A stretch of 64,000 bases of DNA from Camelus ferus (Eukaryota), in contig NC_045696.1 of the NCBI RefSeq assembly GCF_009834535.1, forward strand, positions 39,186,001 to 39,250,000, in the 5' to 3' direction. Made by a program: the position numbers and the translations under genes. Positions within the stretch are counted from its first letter, which is position 1; each line of letters begins with the position of its first letter. This document shows positions 1,761 through 59,400 of the stretch, piece by piece. The notes under the pieces were generated by a model. That model did no database searches. It was not told the origin of the DNA and saw only the letters and a program-made list of their open reading frames with translations.

Positions 1761-2573
1761 CTTCCTCTTGATGACTTCCTACCCATAGTGAACTGGGAGG
1801 ACATCAAGCATAGTTTCAATGGTGTATTGCTATATTGGGCATGGAACGTCTTTATTTTTCTCAAATAATCTCTTTACTTAAGAAAACAAATTTCCTCTTC
1901 CAGATAAATTAGAATTTACTAGTCAAACTATCTCCCAATGATTTTGTTTGTGATTGCATGTACTTTATAAAATGTATATATTAATTTGGGAAATTTACCT
2001 CCTTGACTAGATCAAGTCTTTTTGTTTAGATAAAATTACAGATTTCATATACTAAACAAATTTTATACTTCTCAGTAGTCTTTCATTTTTGCCAAATACA
2101 CATAGGTCAGGCGTATTTCTTGCTAAGTTTAATCAAAAATATAGAATTAGATAAATATGATTATGTGAATATGTGTATACATAATTATAGGTTTTTATGA
2201 AAATGACATAGCCAGGGAGATAACCCAAAAGTTTTTCAAACTAGTAACATAGGAAAATATGAATGATATGTTATTAAATTAAAAATCATTTGTGAAACAT
2301 TATGTGTAGCAATACTCTGATATTATTTATATATGTATAAATGTTTATTTAAATTAAGTGTATATAAATGTATATATAATTTCTGTAAATAAGTATACAG
2401 AGATATCATTCCATGGGTTAAAGGTAGAAGAAAAAAACCCAAAAAGTTAACATTTGGGTAGTAAGCAGTGATTAGTAAGATTACAGCAATTTGTTTTCTT
2501 TGTGCTTTCTACATTCTCAATTTTCTTCCTCAATTAAAATGTTACTTTTTATTTTTAAAAGAAAGAAACAAGC

Positions 2574-2957
2574 TGTGAAGGAAAAGCCGGGCTGGGCTAA
2601 CTCATATATCTAAGTTCATAAGTGTTAGTTTGGTAATTCCCTGCTCATGTTTTTTTTTTTTTTTTTTTTTTTTTTTCCTAGCCAGCTGGATTTTCAGAGA
2701 GACATATCTGGCCTTGAAATGTTGGTTTGCTGCCTCCCTGCCTCTACTTTCGTGATAATGATGCTGCTAAAGCTATTCCATGCCTATTGGCCAAATACCC
2801 CAAGCTTGTAATTAACCCTATAAAACCTCATCCGCACATCTTGGAGGTGCTCGAGCTTTGGAGCAGAAGCCCCTCTGAGACTGCCGGCGTAATAAATCTG
2901 AGTACTCCAACCCTCCGAGTGGTGCTTGTTTCTTGGCTGGCTTGTTGTTTCCATACA
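2574..2957 (+). repeat. 5' LTR
   Basis: Begins TGTGAAGG, ends CCATACA; TATAAAA near 2819 and AATAAA near 2891; direct repeat of 8466-8838. Confidence 0.95.
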
Positions 2958-2961
2958 TTTC

Positions 2962-2979
2962 TGGAGGCCCCAGCGAGAT
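2962..2979 (+). promoter_or_regulatory. Primer-binding site, tRNA-Thr(UGU)
   Basis: TGGAGGCCCCAGCGAGAT is complementary to the recalled tRNA-Thr 3' end ATCTCGCTGGGGCCTCCA and lies 4 nt after the 5' LTR. Confidence 0.85.
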
Positions 2980-3291
2980 TCAACAACGCCAGCCCCTTGA
3001 GCCGCTAGACTGGTGGCTCTGGCCGATGGGGGGACGGGACTCCGACAGCGAACGAGGTGGCGCCGCCCGATGGTATTCCGGGTTCTCTTTCATGATGGTG
3101 ACTTGGCCCCCCCGGGTGGCTGGGCTACAACCAGAGCCAGACTCGGTGGAGGGACAGACAGACTCACCAGGTGGCTGTCCGGAGAAGGTAGGAACCCCCT
3201 GGGAGAAATCAGGTCCTGCCCCAGTGGACAGAAGAGGAGGCTGATCCCCTCCTACAGGAAACAGGATATTGGGATTGGTGGGACTGTTGTT

Positions 3292-3296
<5 letters not shown>

Positions 3297-3322
<26 letters not shown>

Positions 3323-3323
3323 G
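3297..3323. repeat. (TG)n microsatellite in the proviral leader
   Basis: Run of TG dinucleotides. Confidence 0.95.
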
Positions 3324-4142
3324 AATGAATGTGTGGCCTGTGAAGCATGCAGTCAGGCTTGAGTTTGTAGCTCCATGGCATTCTGCTACAGAGTTTGAGT
3401 GAGTCCCAACCTGCAGTTCCATGGTGACCTCATATGGCTCAGGGCGGTATCAGTCCCTCAGGGTCCCGATCAGAGTCAGTGGCTTATACAGACCCACCAA
3501 AGCTAAGTGGCACTTTTGTCCCCGCGAGGGGAGTGGCCAGGCAGACACAGCGAAAACTCTCCCTTGTCTGTGACACCAGCACAGGGTGGCTACACTGGGA
3601 GGGAAAGAGACATAAAAGAGCCAATGAGTCAACGCCACCTGTGCCCTCAGAGGCTAGGATGCTATTTCTTCAAAAAAGTCTCCTACCTGGCTCTGTCATA
3701 GAACACCCGAGACTTATTGTTCCCCTATTGAACTGACCCAAGGAGTGCCCCTTTTGCCTAGCCTCAGACGCCCAGGAATTGAGTTTAGAAGATGGATTTC
3801 TTCAGGACTGGGCTCACCCAGCCTTGGATGTCCCCTTTCTAGTCCATTTGTCTTGCCATCAGCCGTCAGTCCCACGCCCTTGGTACGTTAGTTCAAGATA
3901 TAGAGAGGATTTAATGAGGAAGCCCCTGGAACTGCTTGAGGCCTTGAGCTCCAGAGACATCAGCTGTGACTGGAACCCAGACTCCCTGATGAAATTAACC
4001 TTCAAACAACTAATAGACCCAGCAAGAGAGTGGTCTTTCTGGGAACTCTGGTGTTTTGAAGAGTGAAGAAGGAAAAGATATAAAGGCTACCTTCCCAAAC
4101 ACCCAAAGCAACAGATGTATTATCCTTAAACATCTAGACAGA

Positions 4143-5545
4143 ATGGGAGGCTCGAAGTTGAAACCCACCACCCTAGGCTGCATGATGAAAAATTCCAGAA
4201 AGGGGTTCTCAGGAGACTATGGAGTTTAAGTAACCCCTGGCAGGTTCCACACTTTGTGTGAGCTTGAATGGCCAACCTTTGGAGTTGGGTGGCCTTCAAG
4301 AGGAACTCTGGACCTAGCAACAGTGCGAGCAGTCTATCGAATAATTACTGAAACCCCAGGCCACCCAGATCAATTCCCATACATTGACTCCTGGCTGAAT
4401 ATTGCCCAGACTCTACCCCCATGGATTCGGTTCTACTCAAATGGACCTGGACAATGCAAGGTATTAGCAGCTCAGCTGGTCCAGGCCAAAAAGACAGAGA
4501 AAAGCCTATTTTCCAGGGAGACACAGAGGACGAGATGTGCCTGCCCCCTCCATATGCCCCTGGGGCACCGACACCTCCAGTCCCATTGGAGACACCGCCA
4601 CCCTCTGTGTCACCACCTCCCCAACCTAAGGACCTAGAGGCAGAGCCCAGGCCCCAGCCTAGGAAGGAGGTAGGAAGGAGGCTCTGCTCAGCACAAGCTG
4701 GGAGACCAGCACCACCGGCCCTTCAAATGCCTCTGCGGGAGACACAAGTGCCACAGCACGTTGGGGAGGATGGGACTGCTCAGCCTGGACATCCTGTACT
4801 CTACTACCAACTCTTTAGCACTACAGACCTTCTCAATTGGCGCCATCATACTCCTTCCTATTCCGAAAAACCGCAGGCATTTCAATCACTTTATGGTCTA
4901 AACAGAATTAAGACAAAGAGCTTCCACAATAATAGCAGATGAAGAGCCACTGGTAAACTGATCAGGATTTTTGGCCTGCCCTCCAAAGAAAGGGAGCAGA
5001 AAGTGTCAGAGCGGGCTGCGGATGACATCAGGGGTGCCGGGCTGAGCAGTGACAGCGGGTGGAGCAGCGGCCACGGCCACCTGGTGGCGACAGCAGCATC
5101 AGCAGCAGCCTCTGCAGCCCCGGCACCGTCTCCACCTCAGCGGCCACCACTGCTGCTGCCATGGCAACTGTCGGGGAGCGCCGGCCCCTGCCCAGCCCCG
5201 AAGCGTTGCTGGGATAGTCATGGGGCTCTGTCGCGAAGACATGCCAATATTGGTCTGGGTCCAGCCCATGATGATTTCTACTTGGTGGTGTGTAATGACT
5301 GTAATCAGGTTGTCAAACCGCAGGCTCTCATTGACCTTGTAAAGTCTATCTTTCATTCTCACCGGCCCACCTGGGGAGATGTTCACCAGCTGCTTGTGAC
5401 TCTTCAAAATGGAGGAAAAGAGACACATTCTCACTGAAGCATGAAAATGGCTGCAAGGCCGAGCCCAGAGGGACACACTGGATGTTGAGGGGTGGGCCAT
5501 GACACAGGCCCCTGACACCAGACCAGATTACGACTTTATCTCAGA
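4143..5545 (+). pseudogene. gag: ERV gag (matrix, PPPY late domain, capsid N-terminus); stops, frameshifts, host insertion, 3' deleted
   Basis: MGGSKLKPTTLGCM...CELEWPTFGVGWP (matrix); LPPPYAP; FSTTDLLNWRHHTPSYSEKPQA / [16 protein letters not shown] (capsid, split by the insertion). Confidence 0.93.
4879..5325 (+). pseudogene. ATXN7: Captured spliced, circularly permuted ATXN7 (ataxin-7) 5' exons
   Basis: [47 protein letters not shown] and [22 protein letters not shown] match the ataxin-7 N-terminus. The residues that normally follow (FQSHY, here FQSLY) lie at the START of the insert (4879-4895). Confidence 0.95.
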
Positions 5546-7653
5546 GTCCTGACTCAGAATGTGGGGCCATGGCAGCACCCTGTGGCCTATTTGTCTAAAA
5601 GACTGGACCCTGTGGCATCAGGATGACCACCCTGTCTGCAGACCCTGGCTGCCACAGCCCTCCTGGTCAACGAAGCAGACAAACTCACCCTGGAACAGAC
5701 TTTAAATGTAAAAGTGCCCCACTCTGTTGTGGACCTGATGAACTGCCCAGGTTACAAATGGATAAATAACACAAGAATGACCCATTGCCAGGGGTTTCTA
5801 TGTAAAAATCCAAGAGTCTGTCTAGAGACTGTGCGAACCTTAAACCCAGCCACATATTTACCTGAAGGGGAAGGGTAGCCTAACCACAACTGTAAAAAAT
5901 CATCAAAGAAGAGTACGCGAGTAGGCCTGATCTAACTGACAAGCCCCTGCAAAACGCAGACCTAGAACTCTTCACAGCTGGCAGCAGTTGCGTGCAGGAT
6001 GGACAATGGCGAGCAGGTTACTCTGTAACAACAACATGAGAGATTATTAATAAAGGCAGAATCCCTTCCCCCAGGATGGTCTGCTCAGTGAGCAGAGACG
6101 TGGGCACTGGTCCAGGCACTAAGGGAAGGGAAAGGAAAACAAGTCAATATATACACTGATTCCAAATGTGCATTTGCAACCTTGCATGTACATGGAGCCA
6201 TCTATAAGCAGAGAGGACTTTTGACTGCTGGGGGAAAAAAATAAAAAACAAAGAAGAAATTTTACAGTTACTGGAGGCAGTATGGGATCCAAAGGAAGTG
6301 GCCGTTATTCACTGTAAGGGACACCAAAACTGGAAATAACCCTGTGAACCAGGGTAATAGTCTGGCTGATCAAAAGGCAAGAGAGGCAGCTGCCCTGGAA
6401 CACCCAGTAATGAAAATTATGGCAGCGCCAGAGCTACCCACTACCCTAGAATATTGCCACGATGAAAACAAGTGGGCACAGGCCGAACAAGGGAAGAAAG
6501 GAAAGGATGGATGGTGGATCATGATGGATGGAAGGGTTTTCATCCCAGAACGACTAGCTTATAGCATAGTCCGACAACAACACGAAGCCACACACATGGG
6601 AAAAACGGCTTTGTAGGCCCTGCTGAAGCGGTATTTCCTGATTTCTCGTCTCCCTACTCTGTGTGCATCAGTCTCCCAACACTGCTTGCTCTGTGCACAA
6701 AACAATCCAAAACAAGGGCCCACTGGGCCAATGGGAGTACAACGATGTGGATTGGCTCCCCTCAAAGATTTAGAAGTGGACTTTACTGAACTTGGGCCCA
6801 GTAAGGGATATAAGTACCTGCTGGTTTTTGTCTGCACCTTCACAGGGTGGGTGGAAGCCTACCTCACCAGGACAGAGAAAGCAAGGGAGGTGACAAAGGC
6901 CCTCCTCAGGGATGTCATCCCTCGGCCTGGAATGCCTACCTACATCAGGTCCGACAATGGACCCACCTTCGTGGTAGAGATTGTGCAGCAAGTGGCAAAG
7001 ACAGTGAGCACCCATTGGAACCTACACACAGCATACCGGCCTCAAAGCTCAGGGAAGTTAGAACGAATGAACAGAACTCTAAAAATAAATGATAGCTAAA
7101 ATCAGCCAAGAAACCCAGCTCCCCTGGGTGGACATTTTACCCCTGGCTCTGTTGTGAATTAGATACACCCCAAGACTTAATATTGGGTACTCTCCCTTTG
7201 AAATCCTCTGTGGGAAATCCCACCCTGGAGATAGGAAATTTAGGGTTCCACCAACAACTGTTGGGACTAGGACAAGGACTATGGGAAGTTTGGGGTTGGG
7301 TAATAGAGAGAACCCCCATTTCATTAGAAGTCCAAGTGCATCCCCATAAACCAGGTGACCGAGTATGGGTAAAGGATTGGAAAAAGGAACCTCTGAAACC
7401 AACATGGAAGGGACCATATTTAGTGGTATTAACTACCCCTACAGCTGTTATTAAAGTTGCAAGAATCATCCCTTGGATCCACCACTCCAGGGTTAAGAGA
7501 GCAACTTCACCTCGGACACAGGGTCCCTGGAGAATTGAGAGCGTCCCAGGAGGCCCACTCAAGATCAAGATCAAGAGAGACCAGAAAAAGATTGACGAGC
7601 CCTGCTCTAGCCACACCCAGAAGCTGACTAGTCAATGCACAGCCGCAGCTTGA
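5546..7653 (+). pseudogene. pol: ERV pol 3' half (RT connection, RNase H, integrase); protease and RT core absent
   Basis: [97 protein letters not shown]; several stops and frameshifts. Confidence 0.93.
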
Positions 7654-7849
7654 GGAAAGCTCAACAAAGCTGTTAAATGTATTCCTTTTGTGTCCCCTTG
7701 CCTCTTTCCTTGTTTGCTATACTAGACTGCGTATTAGCAGTGGGACTAGCCAGCACCATCCCATCTGACTGGAATGTAGGCCATAAGATCCTGATAGCTA
7801 TTTTATACCTTGTTATAATGAGTGCCATCACTGCAACATTTTGTCTAAG

Positions 7850-8440
7850 ACAATCATAAGGCTGATATTACTGACACTAATGCCCTCACTCCCCTTGCTA
7901 GTGGGGCTCAAAATGACAACAGGGATGGGCACAGGACTCGGTGGCATAGCCTCATCCTCTTACTACTATTATCAGCTTACAGGTGAGTTCAGCCAAGATC
8001 TCCAATGAACAGCAGAAACCCTGGGAGCTCTGCAAAATCAGATTGACTCTGGCCGAGGTGGTCTTACAAAACAGGAGGGGTCTGGACCTACTCATGGCCA
8101 AAGAGAGGGGACTATGCCTCTTCCTAAACGAAGAGTGCTGTTTTTATGCCAATGAATCAGGAATTGTCAGAGGGATGGTTCAAGAGTTACAAGACCGAGT
8201 GGAAAAGAGGAAACATATTTTAGACAAGAGCCCATGGACAGGCCCCTGGGGCTGGACCTCCTGGCTGGCACTGTTCATAAGACCCTTACTCCTGATTTTT
8301 GCAGTTCTGCTATTTGGGCCCTGTGTCCTAAACTTCCTGACCCACTTTGTCAGTGAGCGGGTAGAGGCTATAAAACACCAGATGTTAGCCTCCAATTATG
8401 AGCCCCTGCAGCAGGTGAAAAATGCTTACTCCAACAAGGG
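7850..8440 (+). pseudogene. env: ERV env remnant: TM subunit, with SU deleted
   Basis: Fusion-peptide-like PLLVGLKMTTGMGTGLGGIASS; immunosuppressive domain LQNRRGLDLL; CLFLNEECCF cysteine motif; membrane anchor LLIFAVLLFGPCVLN. Confidence 0.92.
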
Positions 8441-8453
8441 TTGTAAAAGCCTC

Positions 8454-8465
8454 AAGAGGGGGGAA
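8454..8465 (+). promoter_or_regulatory. Polypurine tract
   Basis: All-purine run (AAGAG...GGAA) abutting the 3' LTR. Confidence 0.9.
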
Positions 8466-8838
8466 TGTGAAGGAAAAGCCAGGCTGGGCTAACTCATAAA
8501 TGTAAATTAATAAGTGTCGGTTTGCTGATTCCCTGCTCATGCTTTTTTTTTTTTTTCCTAACCAGCTGGATTTTCAGAGAGACGTATCTGGTCTTGAAAT
8601 GTTGGTTTGCTGCTCTCTGCCTCTATTTTTGTGATAATGATGCTGCTAAAGCTATTCTATGCCTATAGGCCAAATACCCCAAACTTATAATTAACCCTAT
8701 AAAACCTCATGCACACGTCTTTGAGGTGTTCAGAGCTTTGGAGCAGAAGCCGCCCTGAGCCCGCCGGCATAATAAATCTGAGTACTCCAACCCTCCGAGT
8801 GGTGCTTGTTTCTTGGCTGGCCTGTCGTTTCTGTAACA
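8466..8838 (+). repeat. 3' LTR
   Basis: TGTGAAGG...CTGTAACA, roughly 90% identical to the 5' LTR by eye, followed by the AAGC TSD. Confidence 0.95.
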
Positions 8839-8849
8839 AAGCTATAAAA

Positions 8850-10509: not shown

Positions 10510-12350
10510 CTATGAAGATGCAGAAGAGCTGTTTTTTTTTTTTTTCAGTGCAGTCTCCCTTTTAAAAGAAAAAAATAAAAGCCTCTATTTGACTTTTCGT
10601 AGAAAATACCCCCATCTTCCATGCATTTACTGTTGAAAGATTATTCTTGTCAGAACTAAATTTTCCATAAACTCTATATTCCTTAAAATTTCCAGGTTGT
10701 TTCCTCTCTTTGAATTACATAGCAGGCACTTTAAGAAAATGTTTTAGGACAGCAGAGACTTGGCAGTCAAATCTTCAGCTACATTGTGCAGAATTGGTGA
10801 CTAGGTTATAGAAATAAAAATGTGTTGGAATGACTCCCACTTGACTAGACATGTCATGAAAGCCAGAGAATGGTGAATCCAAGACTTGTAGGTATTCCCC
10901 TGCATGATAATACACTTAGATCAGCTATTTCTAAATGGCTGGACCGTCCTTTACATAACTGAGGCAGGGGTTTGAATACACAAAACATATTTTATGTTTA
11001 GAGTTGTGCATATTCTGTCATAAATGAAATGCATTGTGACCATGTGAACTTAGATTTACCCCCCTGGTTTCCACAGGACTTAGCCTTCTCATTTGCTTCT
11101 CAGGATTATCAAACTCACAGATACATTTTTAGTTTGGGGCTCTTTTCTGCCTTGCCTATCTTTATGTTAGTTATCATTTATTAATGTAGTTGACCTCTCT
11201 CCTCATTTGATATGGTTTTAAGCAAAATTGGTAATATTTATTATTTAAATTGAAACAGCTCGAAAACACTATTTTTTCCACTGTGGTGTTTTTTGTAATG
11301 TTTTAATCCTCTCTGACTTTTGATATTCTTGGTTGTAATCTCAAAAAGAGCAGGAAAAAACATTACAATTATTTTAGGATTATGTGCCTCTGACATATTA
11401 AAAACATTCTTGGTTAACAGCATGATAATTTTTCATTTGGCATATTCAACAACATTGCTTAGATCCTTCCCAAACCTGCAGGTGAACTGGCTAGTGTCAG
11501 TTTTTTCTCTCTTCTTAAAAGAGGGGTTATTTTGGCATCTCAGTGTAACCCCTGGGTTAGAGGTTCTATATGTGACTAAGCTAGAAATGACAGTGTTCTG
11601 GCTTAGGAGGCACTAAAAATACTTAATGACTGAATGAATGATTATGTTCACATATGAGAGTTTATTGGATAAAATTAACAAGAGTCTTTTTGACATTTAT
11701 AGTGGTTTTGATGCATGTATAATCAGTCTTACAGTAATTTGGGGTAATTTTGATGTATATAAAATCAAACATAATAATGATAATGGATAGAAAATAGCAG
11801 AAATGGTATTTTAACCTTCTTACTACTCTACCATTAATGCCTTAGGAGGAAATAATTATGTATAACAGTAGTGTAAAGATACAGCTCATTTTTTGTTCAA
11901 TAGAAAATATATGAAAGAGTTCCTTTGAAATAGAAAAATTTTGATCCTAAAACAGAGCCTCACTTTTTAGAGATTTTGTTATAAAATGTATTATATATTT
12001 TTTATTCTTAATTCAGTATAACATTTCATTATTAATACATTCAGTTTTAAAAATTTATGAGTGACAAGTTATTGACCAAGTCAATTAGTGCTACAGCTGC
12101 CTCAATAATTCTTTTAAGTAATTTTATATATGTGCCTTTAAAATAGTCTGTACTTCTAAAAATTGTTTAAATGTACTTATAATATTCTTAAGTGTGTCTA
12201 GAAAAAGAGAAACCCTGTACCTTTGTATTTGTTCAGTAATGTGCATCTGAGAGAAATATGAGAAAAATTGTCACCCAAGATAAGTTTTCGTGAAACTTGA
12301 TTAATTTTTTTCATTTCCATTCTCCCATTGCAGTGATAGCCTGAGTGGAT

Positions 12351-13274
12351 ATGATGGAGGCAAACAAGACGCTGGTGACTGAGTTTGTTCTCACAAGACT
12401 TTCAGATCTTCCAGGACTGCAGGTCCCACTGTTTCTGGTGTTCTTGGGCATCTACCTCACCACTATGATGGGCAACCTTGGACTGATTTTTCTCATCTGG
12501 AAGGACCCCCACCTTCACACCCCCATGTACTTCTTCCTGGGCAGTTTAGCCTTTGCAGATGCCTGTTCTTCATCCTCCGTGACCCCCAAGATGCTGATGA
12601 ATTTTTTATCTAAGGATCACACAATATCCATGGTTGAATGCATCGCTCAATTTTATTTTTTTGCTTCCAGTGCAACTACAGAATGTTTCCTCCTTGTATT
12701 GATGGCCTATGACCGCTATGTGGCCATACGCAAGCCCTTGCTTTATCCAGTGGTGATGTCCACCAGACTCTGCACTTGGTTGATAAGTGTGTCGTATGTA
12801 ATTGGTTTTCTTCATCCTGTGATTCATGTAGGATTGTTACTTAGATTAACTTTCTGCAGATCCAATATAACCCATCATTTCTACTGTGAAATCTTGCCAC
12901 TTTTCACAATTTCATGCACTGACCCATCTATTAATGCACTGGTAGTTCTTATTTCTGCCATTTTTATACAAGCTTTTACTTTTATGTCCATTATAGTTTC
13001 TTACACTTGTATTCTCTTTGCCATTCTGAAAAAGAAGTTTGAAAAGAGCAGGAGCAAAGCCTTTTCTACATGCGGTGCCCACCTGCTCTCTGTTTCCTTG
13101 TTCTACGGCACTCTCTTCCTCACTTTCGTGTGTCCTGGGTGTGGCGCAGATCAATATCAGAATAAAATGTATTCACTGTTCTACACAATTATAATTCCCC
13201 TGCTAAACCCTTTTATTTATAGCCTAAGGAACAAGGAAGTTTTAGGTGCACTTAGAAAAATGGTAAAGAAATAA
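12351..13274 (+). CDS. Olfactory receptor, OR5AC-like (gene 1), 307 aa
   Basis: Intact single-exon ORF with [37 protein letters not shown]; first ATG at 12351; splice acceptor at 12333. Confidence 0.93.
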
Positions 13275-20460: not shown

Positions 20461-21071
20461 AAAATATTCATGGTGTTAGGTAGGAGCCTAGTCTTACTTC
20501 CAGACAACAGTCTGCAGAGTCCATTAAATCAATCACCTGTTTCCTAATGAACTTGTCTTCTGCCACATTCCTTTCTATTTCTGAGCTCTCTATTCCATTG
20601 TGCTGATTCTCTTGCCTTTCTTATGCACTATCTTAATGTTTTGATGACACAAAACATTATATTTGTTCTTAATGTATCTCTATATTATAGTTCAACATCA
20701 ATTCTGGTATTCTTGACTACTCTTAATATCTATATTTTTCTTGGGAAAAATGGGAAATTCTTTTCTTCCATATGAGTTTTAAGATGAGTATATACAGTTC
20801 TAAAACCTGTATCTAACCCATGTTAGATTGAAAGGAATTTGCATTATATTTACTTGTCAACTTAGGTGAATATAATTTAAAAACTTTTTATTATGAATAA
20901 TTTTGAATGTATATAAAAGTAGATGAATGGAGGTAAAAATTAGTAACTACCAATTAAATGAGAAGCATCTCTTATGAATTTGTTAATCTCATATAATTTC
21001 ACTGTTTTAATGATTCTTTTGTGACTGTTTCCTCACTTATTCTTTCATTTTAGTGATCAGCCAGGTCAGAT

Positions 21072-21995
21072 ATGGCAGAAGAAAACAAGACGCTGGTGAC
21101 TGAGTTTGTTCTCACACGACTTTCAGATCTTCCAGGGCTGCAGGTCCCACTGTTTCTGGTGTTCTTGGGCATCTACCTCACCACTATGATGGGCAACCTT
21201 GGACTGATTTTTCTCATCTGGAAGGACCCCCACCTTCACACCCCCATGTACTTCTTCCTGGGTAGTTTAGCTTTTGCAGATGCCTGTTCTTCATCTTCCG
21301 TGACCCCCAAGATGCTGATGAATTTTTTATCTAAGGATCACACGATATCCATGGTTGAATGCATCGCTCAATTTTATTTTTTTGCTTCCAGTGCAACTAC
21401 AGAATGCTTCCTCCTGGTAGTGATGGCCTATGACCGCTATGTGGCCATATGGAACCCCTTGCTTTATCCAGTGGTGATGTCCACCAGACTCTGCATTCAG
21501 TTTATAGGTGTCTCATATTTCATTTGTTTTCTACATTCAGCAATTCATGTGGGTTTGTTATTTAGATTAACTTTCTGCAGGTCTAACATAATACATTATT
21601 TTTACTGTGAAATTTTACAACTGTTCAAAATTTCTTGCACTGATCCTACAGTTAATATACTTCTGGTTTTCATCTTTTCAGCCTTTATACAAGTCTTCAC
21701 TTTTATGACCATCATGGTCTCTTACACCCATGTCCTCTTTGCCATCCTGAAAAAGAAGTCTGAAAATGGTATGAGCAAAGCCTTCTCCACGTGCAGTGCC
21801 CACCTGCTCTCTGTTTCCTTGTTCTATGGCACTCTCTTCTTCATGTATGTGCGTCCTGGGTCTGCTCCCTCTGAAGATCATGACAAAATGTATTCTTTAT
21901 TTTATACAATAATAATTCCTCTACTAAATCCTTTTATTTATAGCCTGAGGAACAAAGAGGTTATAGGTGCCTTGAGAAGAATAATGAAGAAATAA
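21072..21995 (+). CDS. OR5AC1: Olfactory receptor, OR5AC1-like (gene 2), 307 aa
   Basis: MAEENK start, [38 protein letters not shown] and ALRRIMKK match recalled OR5AC1; intact ORF; acceptor at 21053. Confidence 0.85.
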
Positions 21996-40800: not shown

Positions 40801-41140
40801 TATGGTTATGCCTATATGAAATTATTACTCTATTTCTCTTCCACATGCAACGGTTTTGCATTTGTATCTCTTCCTCATCAATTGTCTTCCACATGGTTTT
40901 AATATTCCCTCACATATTTGTACTTATTTCAGTTTTTTCCAATTTTAGAGTCAGACACCTGAACATAGAATTTGTAAACAGACTTACTTTTGGATAAAAG
41001 TTAAACTTTAAAAACTGCGAATTAAATGGAAAACAACACTAAGGTATAGTTTAATTTGCAAATAAAATGCCACTACTTTATGTTATCTTTAGTGATTGTC
41101 TTTGTCACATATTTTCTCATAACAGTGATCAAGTGTGAGT

Positions 41141-42064
41141 ATGTCAGAAGGAAACAAGACTCTGGTGACTAAATTTGTTCTCACAGGACTTACACAGAGA
41201 CCATGGCTGCAGGTTCTCCTCTTCCTCCTGTTCTTGATCATCTGCCTCACCACCATGGTGGGCAACCTTGGACTGATGGCTCTTATTTGGAAGGATACCC
41301 ATCTTCACACACCCATGTACTTGTTCCTTGGTGGTTTAGCCTTTGCAGATGCTTGCAGTTCAAGCTCTATAACACCCAGGATGCTGGTCAGTTTCTTAGA
41401 CAAGACTGCAAAGATATCCCTAGCTGAGTGCATCACTCAATTTTATTTTTTTGCTTCCAGTGCAACCACAGAATGTTTCCTCCTGGTAGTGATGGCCTAT
41501 GACCGCTATGTAGCCATATGCAATCCCTTGCTTTATCCAGTGGTGATGTCCACCAGAATCTGCACTCACCTGATTAGTATTTCATATGCAATTGGTTTTC
41601 TGCATCCTTTGATTCATGTGAGCTTGTTATTAAGATTAACTTTCTGCAGGTCTAATGTAATATATTATTTCTATTGTGAAATTTTACAGCTGTTCAAAAT
41701 TTCATGCAATGACTCATCTATTAATGCATTAATGCTACTTATTTTTGGAGCTTTTATACAAATTTCCACTGTAATGACCATCATAATCTCTTATACTCGT
41801 GTGCTCTTTGACATTCTGAAAAAAAAGTCTGAAAAGGGCAGAAGCAAAGCCTTCTCCACGTGCAGTGCCCATATGCTCTCTGTTTCACTGTACTACGGCA
41901 CTCTCATTTTCATGTATGTGCGCCCTGCATCTAGCCTAGCTGAAGATCAGGACAAAATATATTCCCTGTTTTACACAATTATAATCCCCCTGCTAAACCC
42001 ATTTATTTACAGCTTGAGAAATAAAGAGGCTATAGGTGCTTTGAGAAGAGTTGCAAAGAAGTAA
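41141..42064 (+). CDS. OR5AC2: Olfactory receptor, OR5AC2-like (gene 3), 307 aa
   Basis: [29 protein letters not shown] and [27 protein letters not shown] match recalled OR5AC2; intact ORF; acceptor at 41125. Confidence 0.88.
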
Positions 42065-57332: not shown

Positions 57333-57697
57333 TCCCTTTTCCCCAAAGGTAGAACTGAATGTCTTATACGGGAACCAGGCATACCCGTAATATCCCATTT
57401 CAATATGACAAAATTATTACTTCTACATAAATCTCAATGGTTGTGGGTCTTCCTACTATGGATATGCCCCATCTATCCAGATGGTATTCAGCTCTAAGCA
57501 TAATCTTAAAGTGGTTCTTACTTTTACCTCATACCCTACCATACAGATACAGAATACAGTCTATCAAAGTTGATAATCAACGTCCCTTTTAACTTGGTAT
57601 CTGAAATACAGATATTTCAGCTATTAAAAGGAATTTTAGGTTTTTATAATTCAGAATATTTCATTTGTCCTCTAAGTACTGTTTACTTCCATTTTTA

Positions 57698-59400
<1,703 letters not shown>

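Follow-up and report, generated by a model that had tools for sequence, protein, structure and literature searches.

Circularly permuted ATXN7 exons in the capsid gene of a gammaretrovirus-like endogenous retrovirus suggest copy-choice capture of a circular RNA

Results

Permuted ATXN7 exons interrupt a retroviral capsid gene

The 64,000-nucleotide stretch of Camelus ferus DNA analyzed here (contig NC_045696.1; hereafter the window), from a mammalian host genome of 2.09 Gb, contains at positions 2574-8838 the provirus of an endogenous retrovirus (ERV) in which the capsid region of gag is interrupted by spliced sequence from the host gene ATXN7. An 11-mer, AAACCGCAGGC, occurs at 4868-4878 and, 447 nt further on, at 5315-5325. 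The capsid frame reads ...YSEKPQA up to the end of the first copy and resumes after the second (open reading frame (ORF) 4943..5437), as an initial annotation of the window, made from its letters alone, had recognized. The sequence between the two 11-mers, 4879-5314, consists of intronless ATXN7 in circularly permuted order, running from the tail of exon 5 through exon 2, exon 3, and the tail of exon 4 into exon 5. At either end the insert directly adjoins gag, and its ATXN7 part begins and ends at one and the same point of exon 5.

The parent locus was found on contig C17 by searching the window's own genome with 4879-5313, and window positions 4840-5360 were then compared by blastn with 140 kb of the host ATXN7 locus (14 loci, L013-L026). 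This comparison returned six matches and none other in the 140 kb; they all lie on the minus strand and follow one another linearly in the host, which bears out the annotation's description of an intronless, out-of-order stretch of ATXN7. Exon 2 is matched by 4889-4994 (L013, 87.9% identity, E 2e-32), exon 3 by 4993-5118 (L014, E 2e-21) and 5114-5223 (L014, E 1e-30), the end of exon 4 by 5216-5238 (L014, 23/23 positions), exon 5 by 5237-5325 (L018, 94.4% identity, E 6e-34), and the end of exon 5 by 4868-4897 (L018, 28/30 positions). In the host DNA, exons 2, 3, 4, and 5 are 98, 355, 69, and 105 nt long (627 nt in total), lie in linear order over ~52 kb of C17, and are each preceded by ag and followed by gt.

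The internal borders of the insert coincide exactly with these exon borders. Position 4895 corresponds to the base immediately 5′ of the exon-5 gt and position 4896 to the base immediately 3′ of the exon-2 ag, so that 4895/4896 joins the exon-5 donor to an acceptor ~52 kb upstream in the gene, while 4993/4994 and 5238/5239 are normal exon junctions. The annotation had predicted a splice donor at 4895, the acceptor of an upstream 5′-untranslated-region (5′-UTR) exon at 4896, and normal junctions at 4993/4994 and about 5238; all of these were found, the 5′-UTR exon being the 98-nt exon 2. The insert holds exons 2-5 only, with no exon 1, exon 6, intron, or poly(A) in the window sequence when read against the 140 kb of host locus. 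The 17-nt tail of exon 5 that precedes the junction matches the host at 14-16 of its 17 positions across 12 copies of the insert (16/17 in 8 of them). Close to the junction, several bases distinguish the ERV copies from the host. Seven nucleotides before 4896 also align to the end of the host intron upstream of exon 2, a similarity that we attribute to chance in the window copy, as other copies read there as the end of exon 5.

The matches to exons 3 and 4 overlap by 8 nt, and this overlap is the imperfect microhomology at which 94 nt have been deleted. Cryptic splicing was considered as the cause of this deletion and rejected, since no placement within the microhomology gives both GT and AG; a microhomology deletion is preferred.

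Insert-less relatives preserve the empty site and an 11-nt homology

Capsid genes that lack the insert were located by a Pfam Gag_p30 search of the genome, and nine were fetched. Eight of these are close relatives, 83-88% identical to the window flanks, and each has a single 11-mer at the site, either AAGCCGCAGGC or AAGCCACAGGC (8/8). Both flanks of the window insert map onto this single empty-site 11-mer with an 11-nt overlap, and no base of gag has been lost. Because the 11-mer is present once in the insert-less relatives, the K-P-Q-A stretch that it encodes belongs to gag. One insert-less relative retains an open capsid frame over the site, ...YSEKPQAMIDLIESIF..., that aligns without gaps to a solved capsid of the murine leukemia virus (MLV) type. 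With an empty-site sequence as a probe, the match was unbroken in 28 of the 50 rows listed, and insert-bearing copies were split at the 11-mer. An insert-less copy also lies on the window's own contig (C1:39360196-39360605), ~110 kb past the window end, and is 93% identical to the insert-less relative L037.

The empty-site 11-mer AAGCCGCAGGC, read as capsid codons K-P-Q-A, matches AAACCGCAGGC of ATXN7 exon 5 at 10 of 11 positions. The insert corresponds exactly to the stretch enclosed by two passes of this homology. The third base of the 11-mer distinguishes the two sources. At the 5′ copy it is A, the ATXN7 type, in 11/12 full-insert copies, and at the 3′ copy it is G, as in 8/8 close empty sites, in 5/12 full-insert and 9/10 short-insert copies. 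This pattern is as expected if, during minus-strand synthesis, the enzyme completed each switch once it had copied the donor's stretch of homology.

The insert is carried by a multi-copy family in two forms

A genome-wide search with the insert gave 42 matches: the window, 20 more full-length inserts, an insert that a gap divides into 2 rows, 16 matches to the 3′ half only, and 3 pieces of the host gene. The window locus is therefore not unique, and at least 38 ERV-borne loci carry the insert. Inspection covered 22 of the 38 loci with the ERV pattern, namely the window, 11 other full-insert copies, and 10 short-insert copies. All 21 fetched copies lie in the same ERV as the window copy, with which they align colinearly to either side of the insert. 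The gag/insert junctions and the exon 5-to-exon 2 junction are common to 12/12 full-insert copies, and the 94-nt deletion to 22/22 aligned copies. The spacing of 447 nt belongs to the window copy only, the 12 full-insert copies having inserts of 410-467 nt. Over 155 nt, the full copies average 87.5% identity to the host exons.

The short form (L027-L036, 10 of 16 such matches) is 224-240 nt long and corresponds to the full form minus ~207 nt; missing from it are the 5′ 11-mer, the tail of exon 5, the whole of exon 2, and the beginning of exon 3. Two short-insert copies on contig C37, L030 and L033, lie ~1.3 Mb apart on opposite strands and are near-identical, with end branches of ~0.003 in the trees described below; their 5′ flanks differ at the edge of the long terminal repeat (LTR), which points to very recent integrations or to a duplication.

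In 12/12 full-insert copies the gag frame meets a stop codon at 4940-4942 (TGA in 5, TAA in 7), and host exon 2 has TGA at this place. As the stop is common to every full copy and was already in host exon 2, the carrier would have been defective from the start and mobilized by relatives with an intact gag. An in-frame fusion protein had seemed conceivable, 447 being a multiple of 3 and the ATXN7 start falling in the gag frame. This candidate was discarded: the start codon is changed in 12/12 full-insert copies, a stop lies upstream of it, the 94-nt deletion shifts the frame, and lap length varies from 410 to 467 nt. The insert is probably without present function and inert for the host.

A further deletion joins capsid to pol in the window copy. 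Five other full-insert copies (L002, L006, L008, L010, and L012) align across this junction, and the 6 remaining full-insert copies stop there, as do all 10 short-insert copies (9 at 5538, L034 at 5529). Trees were built from 476 columns and 31 rows, and from 1637 columns and 30 rows without the distant L043. The six copies with the capsid-to-pol deletion, the window included, form a supported clade (91/81 to 99/92), which means that a doubly defective genome kept spreading. The target-site duplications (TSDs) of the two elements checked differ, AAGC at the window and GTAA at L028. Because the TSDs differ and because a six-copy clade shares a further deletion, the copies spread by integration and not by segmental duplication. 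End branches in one of the trees average ~0.030 for short copies and ~0.066 for full copies.

The provirus and its surroundings

The provirus has the features expected of an ERV bounded by LTRs: a pair of repeats with TG..CA ends that are 87.9% identical over 379 aligned nt (5′ LTR against 8466-8831), flanked by a 4-bp TSD, AAGC (Table 1). Pfam domains found in the window frames are Gag_MA, Gag_p30 (weak in the window copy but scoring 197 bits in the insert-less relative L037), rve, MLVIN_C, and TLV_coat. With an MLV-type Gag, an integrase core followed by the MLV integrase C-terminal domain, a gamma-type Env transmembrane subunit, and LTRs with a TSD, the provirus classes by its sequence as a gammaretrovirus-like (class I) ERV. 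The capsid sequence downstream of the insert, 5326-5538, is 83-87% identical to the insert-less capsid genes. After the 5′ LTR lies TGGAGGCCCCAGCG... (2962..2979), a candidate primer-binding site.

Table 1 Features of the provirus and of the ATXN7 insert in the window
Feature	Position	Strand	Basis or remark
Target-site duplication AAGC, 5′ copy	2570..2573	+	Directly before 5′ LTR; repeated directly after 3′ LTR
5′ LTR (TGTG...ACA)	2574..2957	+	Identity to 3′ LTR; end set by comparison with other copies
Primer-binding-site-like sequence	2962..2979	+	TGGAGGCCCCAGCG... after 5′ LTR in the window and in 9/9 other copies in which the 5′ LTR end was found
gag matrix region	4230..4634	+	Pfam Gag_MA, E 1.7e-16, frame residues 5-70
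gag p12 / N-terminal capsid frame, ending ...YSEKPQA	4388..4878	+	ORF 4388..4942; insert-less relatives read ...YSEKPQAMIDLIESIF unbroken
5′ copy of 11-mer homology AAACCGCAGGC, ATXN7-type third base	4868..4878	+	Repeat search; third base as in host exon 5
Last 17 nt of ATXN7 exon 5, to splice donor	4879..4895	+	15/17 match host
ATXN7 exon 2 (5′-UTR, 98 nt)	4896..4993	+	86/98 identical to host; 4895/4896 is a back-splice-type junction
ATXN7 exon 3 (start-codon and CAG-repeat exon), repeat tract shortened, 3′ end cut	4994..5223	+	Matches L014 1506-1370 and 1297-1191
Last 23 nt of ATXN7 exon 4	5216..5238	+	Identical to L014 877-855; host exon ends before gt
ATXN7 exon 5, acceptor to 11-mer	5239..5314	+	94.4% identity; host exon starts after ag at L018 2772
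3′ copy of 11-mer homology	5315..5325	+	Single copy at the matching point in insert-less relatives
gag capsid continued (LIDLVKSIF...)	5326..5538	+	Gag_p30 profile positions 8-48, E 8.6e-5, under the Pfam cut-off in the broken window copy
Internal deletion junction, capsid to pol	5538..5540	+	Alignment of other copies
pol integrase remnants	6617..7650	+	rve, E 1.6e-16; MLVIN_C, E 1.6e-17
env transmembrane-subunit remnant	7950..8489	+	TLV_coat, E 1.4e-37, profile positions 452-559 of 560
3′ LTR	8466..8838	+	LTR comparison
Target-site duplication AAGC, 3′ copy	8839..8842	+	Directly after 3′ LTR

The long leader between the LTR and gag contains a short GT/CA microsatellite (window ~3300-3330), seen as CVCVCV and HTHTHT runs in the frames. 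The provirus sits in a cluster of olfactory-receptor genes, with three open frames of 309-312 amino acids on the plus strand (12345-13271, 21057-21992, and 41129-42061) that match Pfam 7tm_4 at E 5e-44 to 3e-42. A fourth open frame, of 191 amino acids at 57510-58082, has no Pfam match.

Discussion

Origin of the insert

The likely origin of the insert is copy-choice capture of a co-packaged circular RNA (circRNA) of ATXN7 by a gammaretrovirus-like ERV, followed by spread in trans. In this process, an ancestral ERV would have packaged host circATXN7 (exons 2-3-4-5) along with its own genomic RNA. During minus-strand synthesis, reverse transcriptase would have copied gag as far as AAGCCGCAGGC and then switched to the circle at the homologous AAACCGCAGGC of exon 5, copied the circle once round through the exon 5-to-exon 2 back-splice junction, met the homology again, and switched back to gag. 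The product would be an otherwise uninterrupted gag with one permuted, spliced ATXN7 lap between two 11-mers. The 94-nt deletion at the 8-nt imperfect microhomology could have arisen during capture or soon after it. With Gag truncated by the in-frame stop, the resulting passenger genome would have been defective, and insert-less relatives would have mobilized it in trans to at least 38 loci, derived forms appearing on the way: the shorter insert, and the capsid-to-pol deletion that the window copy has. The capture appears to be old, as the divergences of ~12% between copies and host exons and between LTRs suggest an age of roughly tens of millions of years, a figure to which no calibrated rate was applied. 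The initial annotation had likewise proposed the capture of a circATXN7, and every check it suggested that was run came out as predicted.

Several observations weigh against this account. Sequence by itself cannot tell a circle from a linear RNA with an exon 5-to-exon 2 junction, and we infer the existence of circATXN7(2,3,4,5) in the host, as well as the circular nature of the template, its packaging, and the order of the switches. Across the exon 3/4 junction 94 nt are missing from the lap, as is part of the CAG/GCC repeat tract, so that it does not amount to the complete 627-nt exon set; the annotation's "full lap" of a circATXN7 therefore stands for the topology but not for completeness. 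The mark left by the third base of the homology is not uniform, the 3′ 11-mer having A and not G in 7/12 full-insert copies, the window's clade included. An exact 11-mer shared by a 627-nt circle and a genome of ~8.3 kb is expected ~1.2 times by chance, and the homology accounts for the place of the switch, not for its cause. Both trees are star-like, and in neither does the outgroup fall on one side of a branch, so that they give no firm polarity; two insert-less rows fall among insert-bearing ones, and no starred branch supports a single origin of the insert-bearing copies or an order of full before short. One origin followed by retrotransposition is nonetheless probable from the alignment, with identical junctions and the 94-nt deletion in 22/22 copies.

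The alternative that survives best is a linear, trans-spliced ATXN7 RNA with repeated exons (2-3-4-5-2-3-4-5), entered and left by the enzyme at successive exon-5 homologies. Such a template would yield identical DNA, with an exon-exact 5-to-2 junction and one period between the 11-mers, and non-colinear transcripts are described, in the abstract of PMC6283421, as arising by trans-splicing as well as by back-splicing. We nevertheless regard this template as unlikely. A human catalogue lists the ATXN7 exon 2-5 product as a circRNA (supplement of PMC13313202), mouse pseudogenes with a back-splice-type junction have likewise been attributed to circRNA (PMC4897178), and no trans-spliced ATXN7 RNA turned up in the literature searches made. 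A circle also brings the enzyme back to the same homology after exactly one lap, with no added assumption.

A linear messenger RNA (mRNA) with a 5-to-2 junction could also have been transcribed from an ancestral tandem duplication of ATXN7 exons 2-5, in the host or in one allele, that was later lost. The copies are ~12.5% diverged from today's host exons, so the event is old. This origin would need a duplication of ~52 kb and then its clean loss. A tandem duplication had been named by the initial annotation as an outcome that would speak against a circle, and in the present host locus there is none: exons 2-5 are all single and linearly arranged across the 140 kb compared. Genome-wide, the sole matches outside the ERV-insert pattern are the three on C17, with 22 of the 38 ERV-pattern loci inspected. 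We consider a lost duplication very unlikely.

An origin in two steps, in which a colinear piece of ATXN7 mRNA from the exon 3 repeat tract to exon 5 (the short form) was acquired first and the 5′ part later, appears more improbable still. Taken alone, the short form does resemble a simple colinear insertion ending at the 11-mer (16 matches, 10 examined), and the trees leave the order of the full and short forms unsettled. However, the second step would have to add, without a seam, the end of exon 5, all of exon 2, and the portion of exon 3 that the short form lacks on its 5′ side. It would itself depend on a template in which exon 5 is joined to exon 2, so that the circle is not removed from the account. 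By comparison, one deletion of ~207 nt converts the full form to the short form, both forms carry the 94-nt deletion (22/22), and the shorter end branches of the short copies (~0.030 against ~0.066) fit a younger form.

An assembly artefact, about which the annotation had cautioned, or a chance resemblance is practically negligible, given E-values of 2e-21 to 6e-34 against the host exons, the same structure and junctions in 11/11 other full-insert copies on 9 other contigs, and, by shared words only, 14 public runs (three organism codes) in which half or more of the words sampled from window 4600-5600 occur. Among the 24 runs compared in this way, one RNA run contains 0.28 of the sampled words and five possible RNA runs contain 0.05-0.18; none of these shared-word values has a bearing on expression, junction support, or habitat.

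Comparison with known systems

Copy-choice capture of circATXN7 invites comparison first with classical retroviral transduction. Acutely transforming retroviruses carry spliced host sequence in sense orientation in the retroviral genome, and the carrier is defective and depends on a helper. The host sequence is colinear, usually replaces viral sequence, and is often fused to the viral frame. The ATXN7-bearing ERV resembles these viruses in its sense, spliced host sequence and in being a defective carrier dependent on a helper. It differs in that its host exons are permuted, no viral sequence has been replaced, and no host frame is kept, and in being germline and multi-copy, not a somatic tumor isolate. 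With its permuted order, no gag base lost, and a gag-frame stop in 12/12 copies, the insert falls outside classical transduction.

The proposed template has a counterpart in human. As the annotation had anticipated, a circle with the same back-splice is catalogued: circATXN7(2,3,4,5).1, or hsa_circ_0002634, in supplement file 4 of PMC13313202. This RNA belongs to another species but has the same exon set and hence the same exon 5-to-exon 2 back-splice junction. Human and host exons appear to correspond, judging from exon 4, which is 69 nt long in both, from the position of the CAG repeat in exon 3, and from the exon order. According to PMC13313202, all catalogued ATXN7 circRNAs that bear the repeat contain exon 3, and PMC10786880 describes a two-exon circle of 405 nt, which fits exon sizes of 336 + 69 nt.

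For the first step that the capture needs, circRNAs have been found in retroviral particles, and MLV, itself a gammaretrovirus, packages circESYT2 according to the abstract of a recent preprint (bioRxiv 10.64898/2026.01.21.700838). By analogy, packaging of circATXN7 by the ancestral ERV is plausible. The preprint concerns RNA in particles from cell culture, and its abstract, unlike the events proposed here, does not include reverse transcription or integration of a circle. Literature searches covered ATXN7 in ERVs, follow-ups of circRFWD2, and circRNA in combination with LTR retrotransposition or template switching. Going by titles and the opening lines of abstracts, none of the reports they turned up describes a retroviral gene with a circRNA insert, most subscription journals lying outside these searches.

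The closest known system is the circRNA-derived pseudogene, a class defined by its non-colinear junction (Dong et al, 2016, Cell Res; PMC4897178). The initial annotation's statement that no comparable case had been described was thus too strong. In mouse, circRFWD2 has 33 high-confidence copies with an exon 6-to-exon 2 junction and no poly(A); LTRs are enriched in their flanks, the legend of figure 1D marks an adjacent MMERVK10C-int, and the authors, in the one paper that the searches turned up on this matter, call the return of circRNAs to the genome "mysterious" (PMC4897178). The ATXN7 insert has the features of this class, being intronless, with a junction at back-splice sites, no outside exons, and no poly(A). 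Like the circRFWD2 family, it consists of circle exons only and exists in many copies. PMC4897178 does not describe the mouse copies as an insert inside a retroviral gene, whereas the ATXN7 insert has a defined position within a gammaretrovirus-like ERV's capsid gene, where empty sites and an 11-nt homology place both crossovers. The two cases also differ in gene, host, and ERV class, the mouse copies having been compared by their published description only.

The class of circRNA-derived pseudogenes is thus already in print, and the ATXN7 ERV family adds a member whose anatomy makes the open mechanism readable. It preserves together a filled site, many empty sites, a short crossover homology, an exon-exact back-splice junction, and the later spread of a defective carrier. 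If copy-choice capture is indeed its origin, the family is a germline fossil of homology-guided copy-choice on a packaged circRNA; it would imply that gammaretrovirus-like particles packaged and copied a host circRNA, and would show by what route circular RNAs can return to a genome as DNA. Whether the same route, in which an ERV takes up the circRNA and the defective carrier is then mobilized in trans, is the general mechanism by which multi-copy circRNA-derived pseudogenes such as mouse circRFWD2 arise seems to us evenly balanced. For the comparison with other LTR-associated permuted pseudogenes, the ATXN7 family provides a concrete template against which they can be re-examined.

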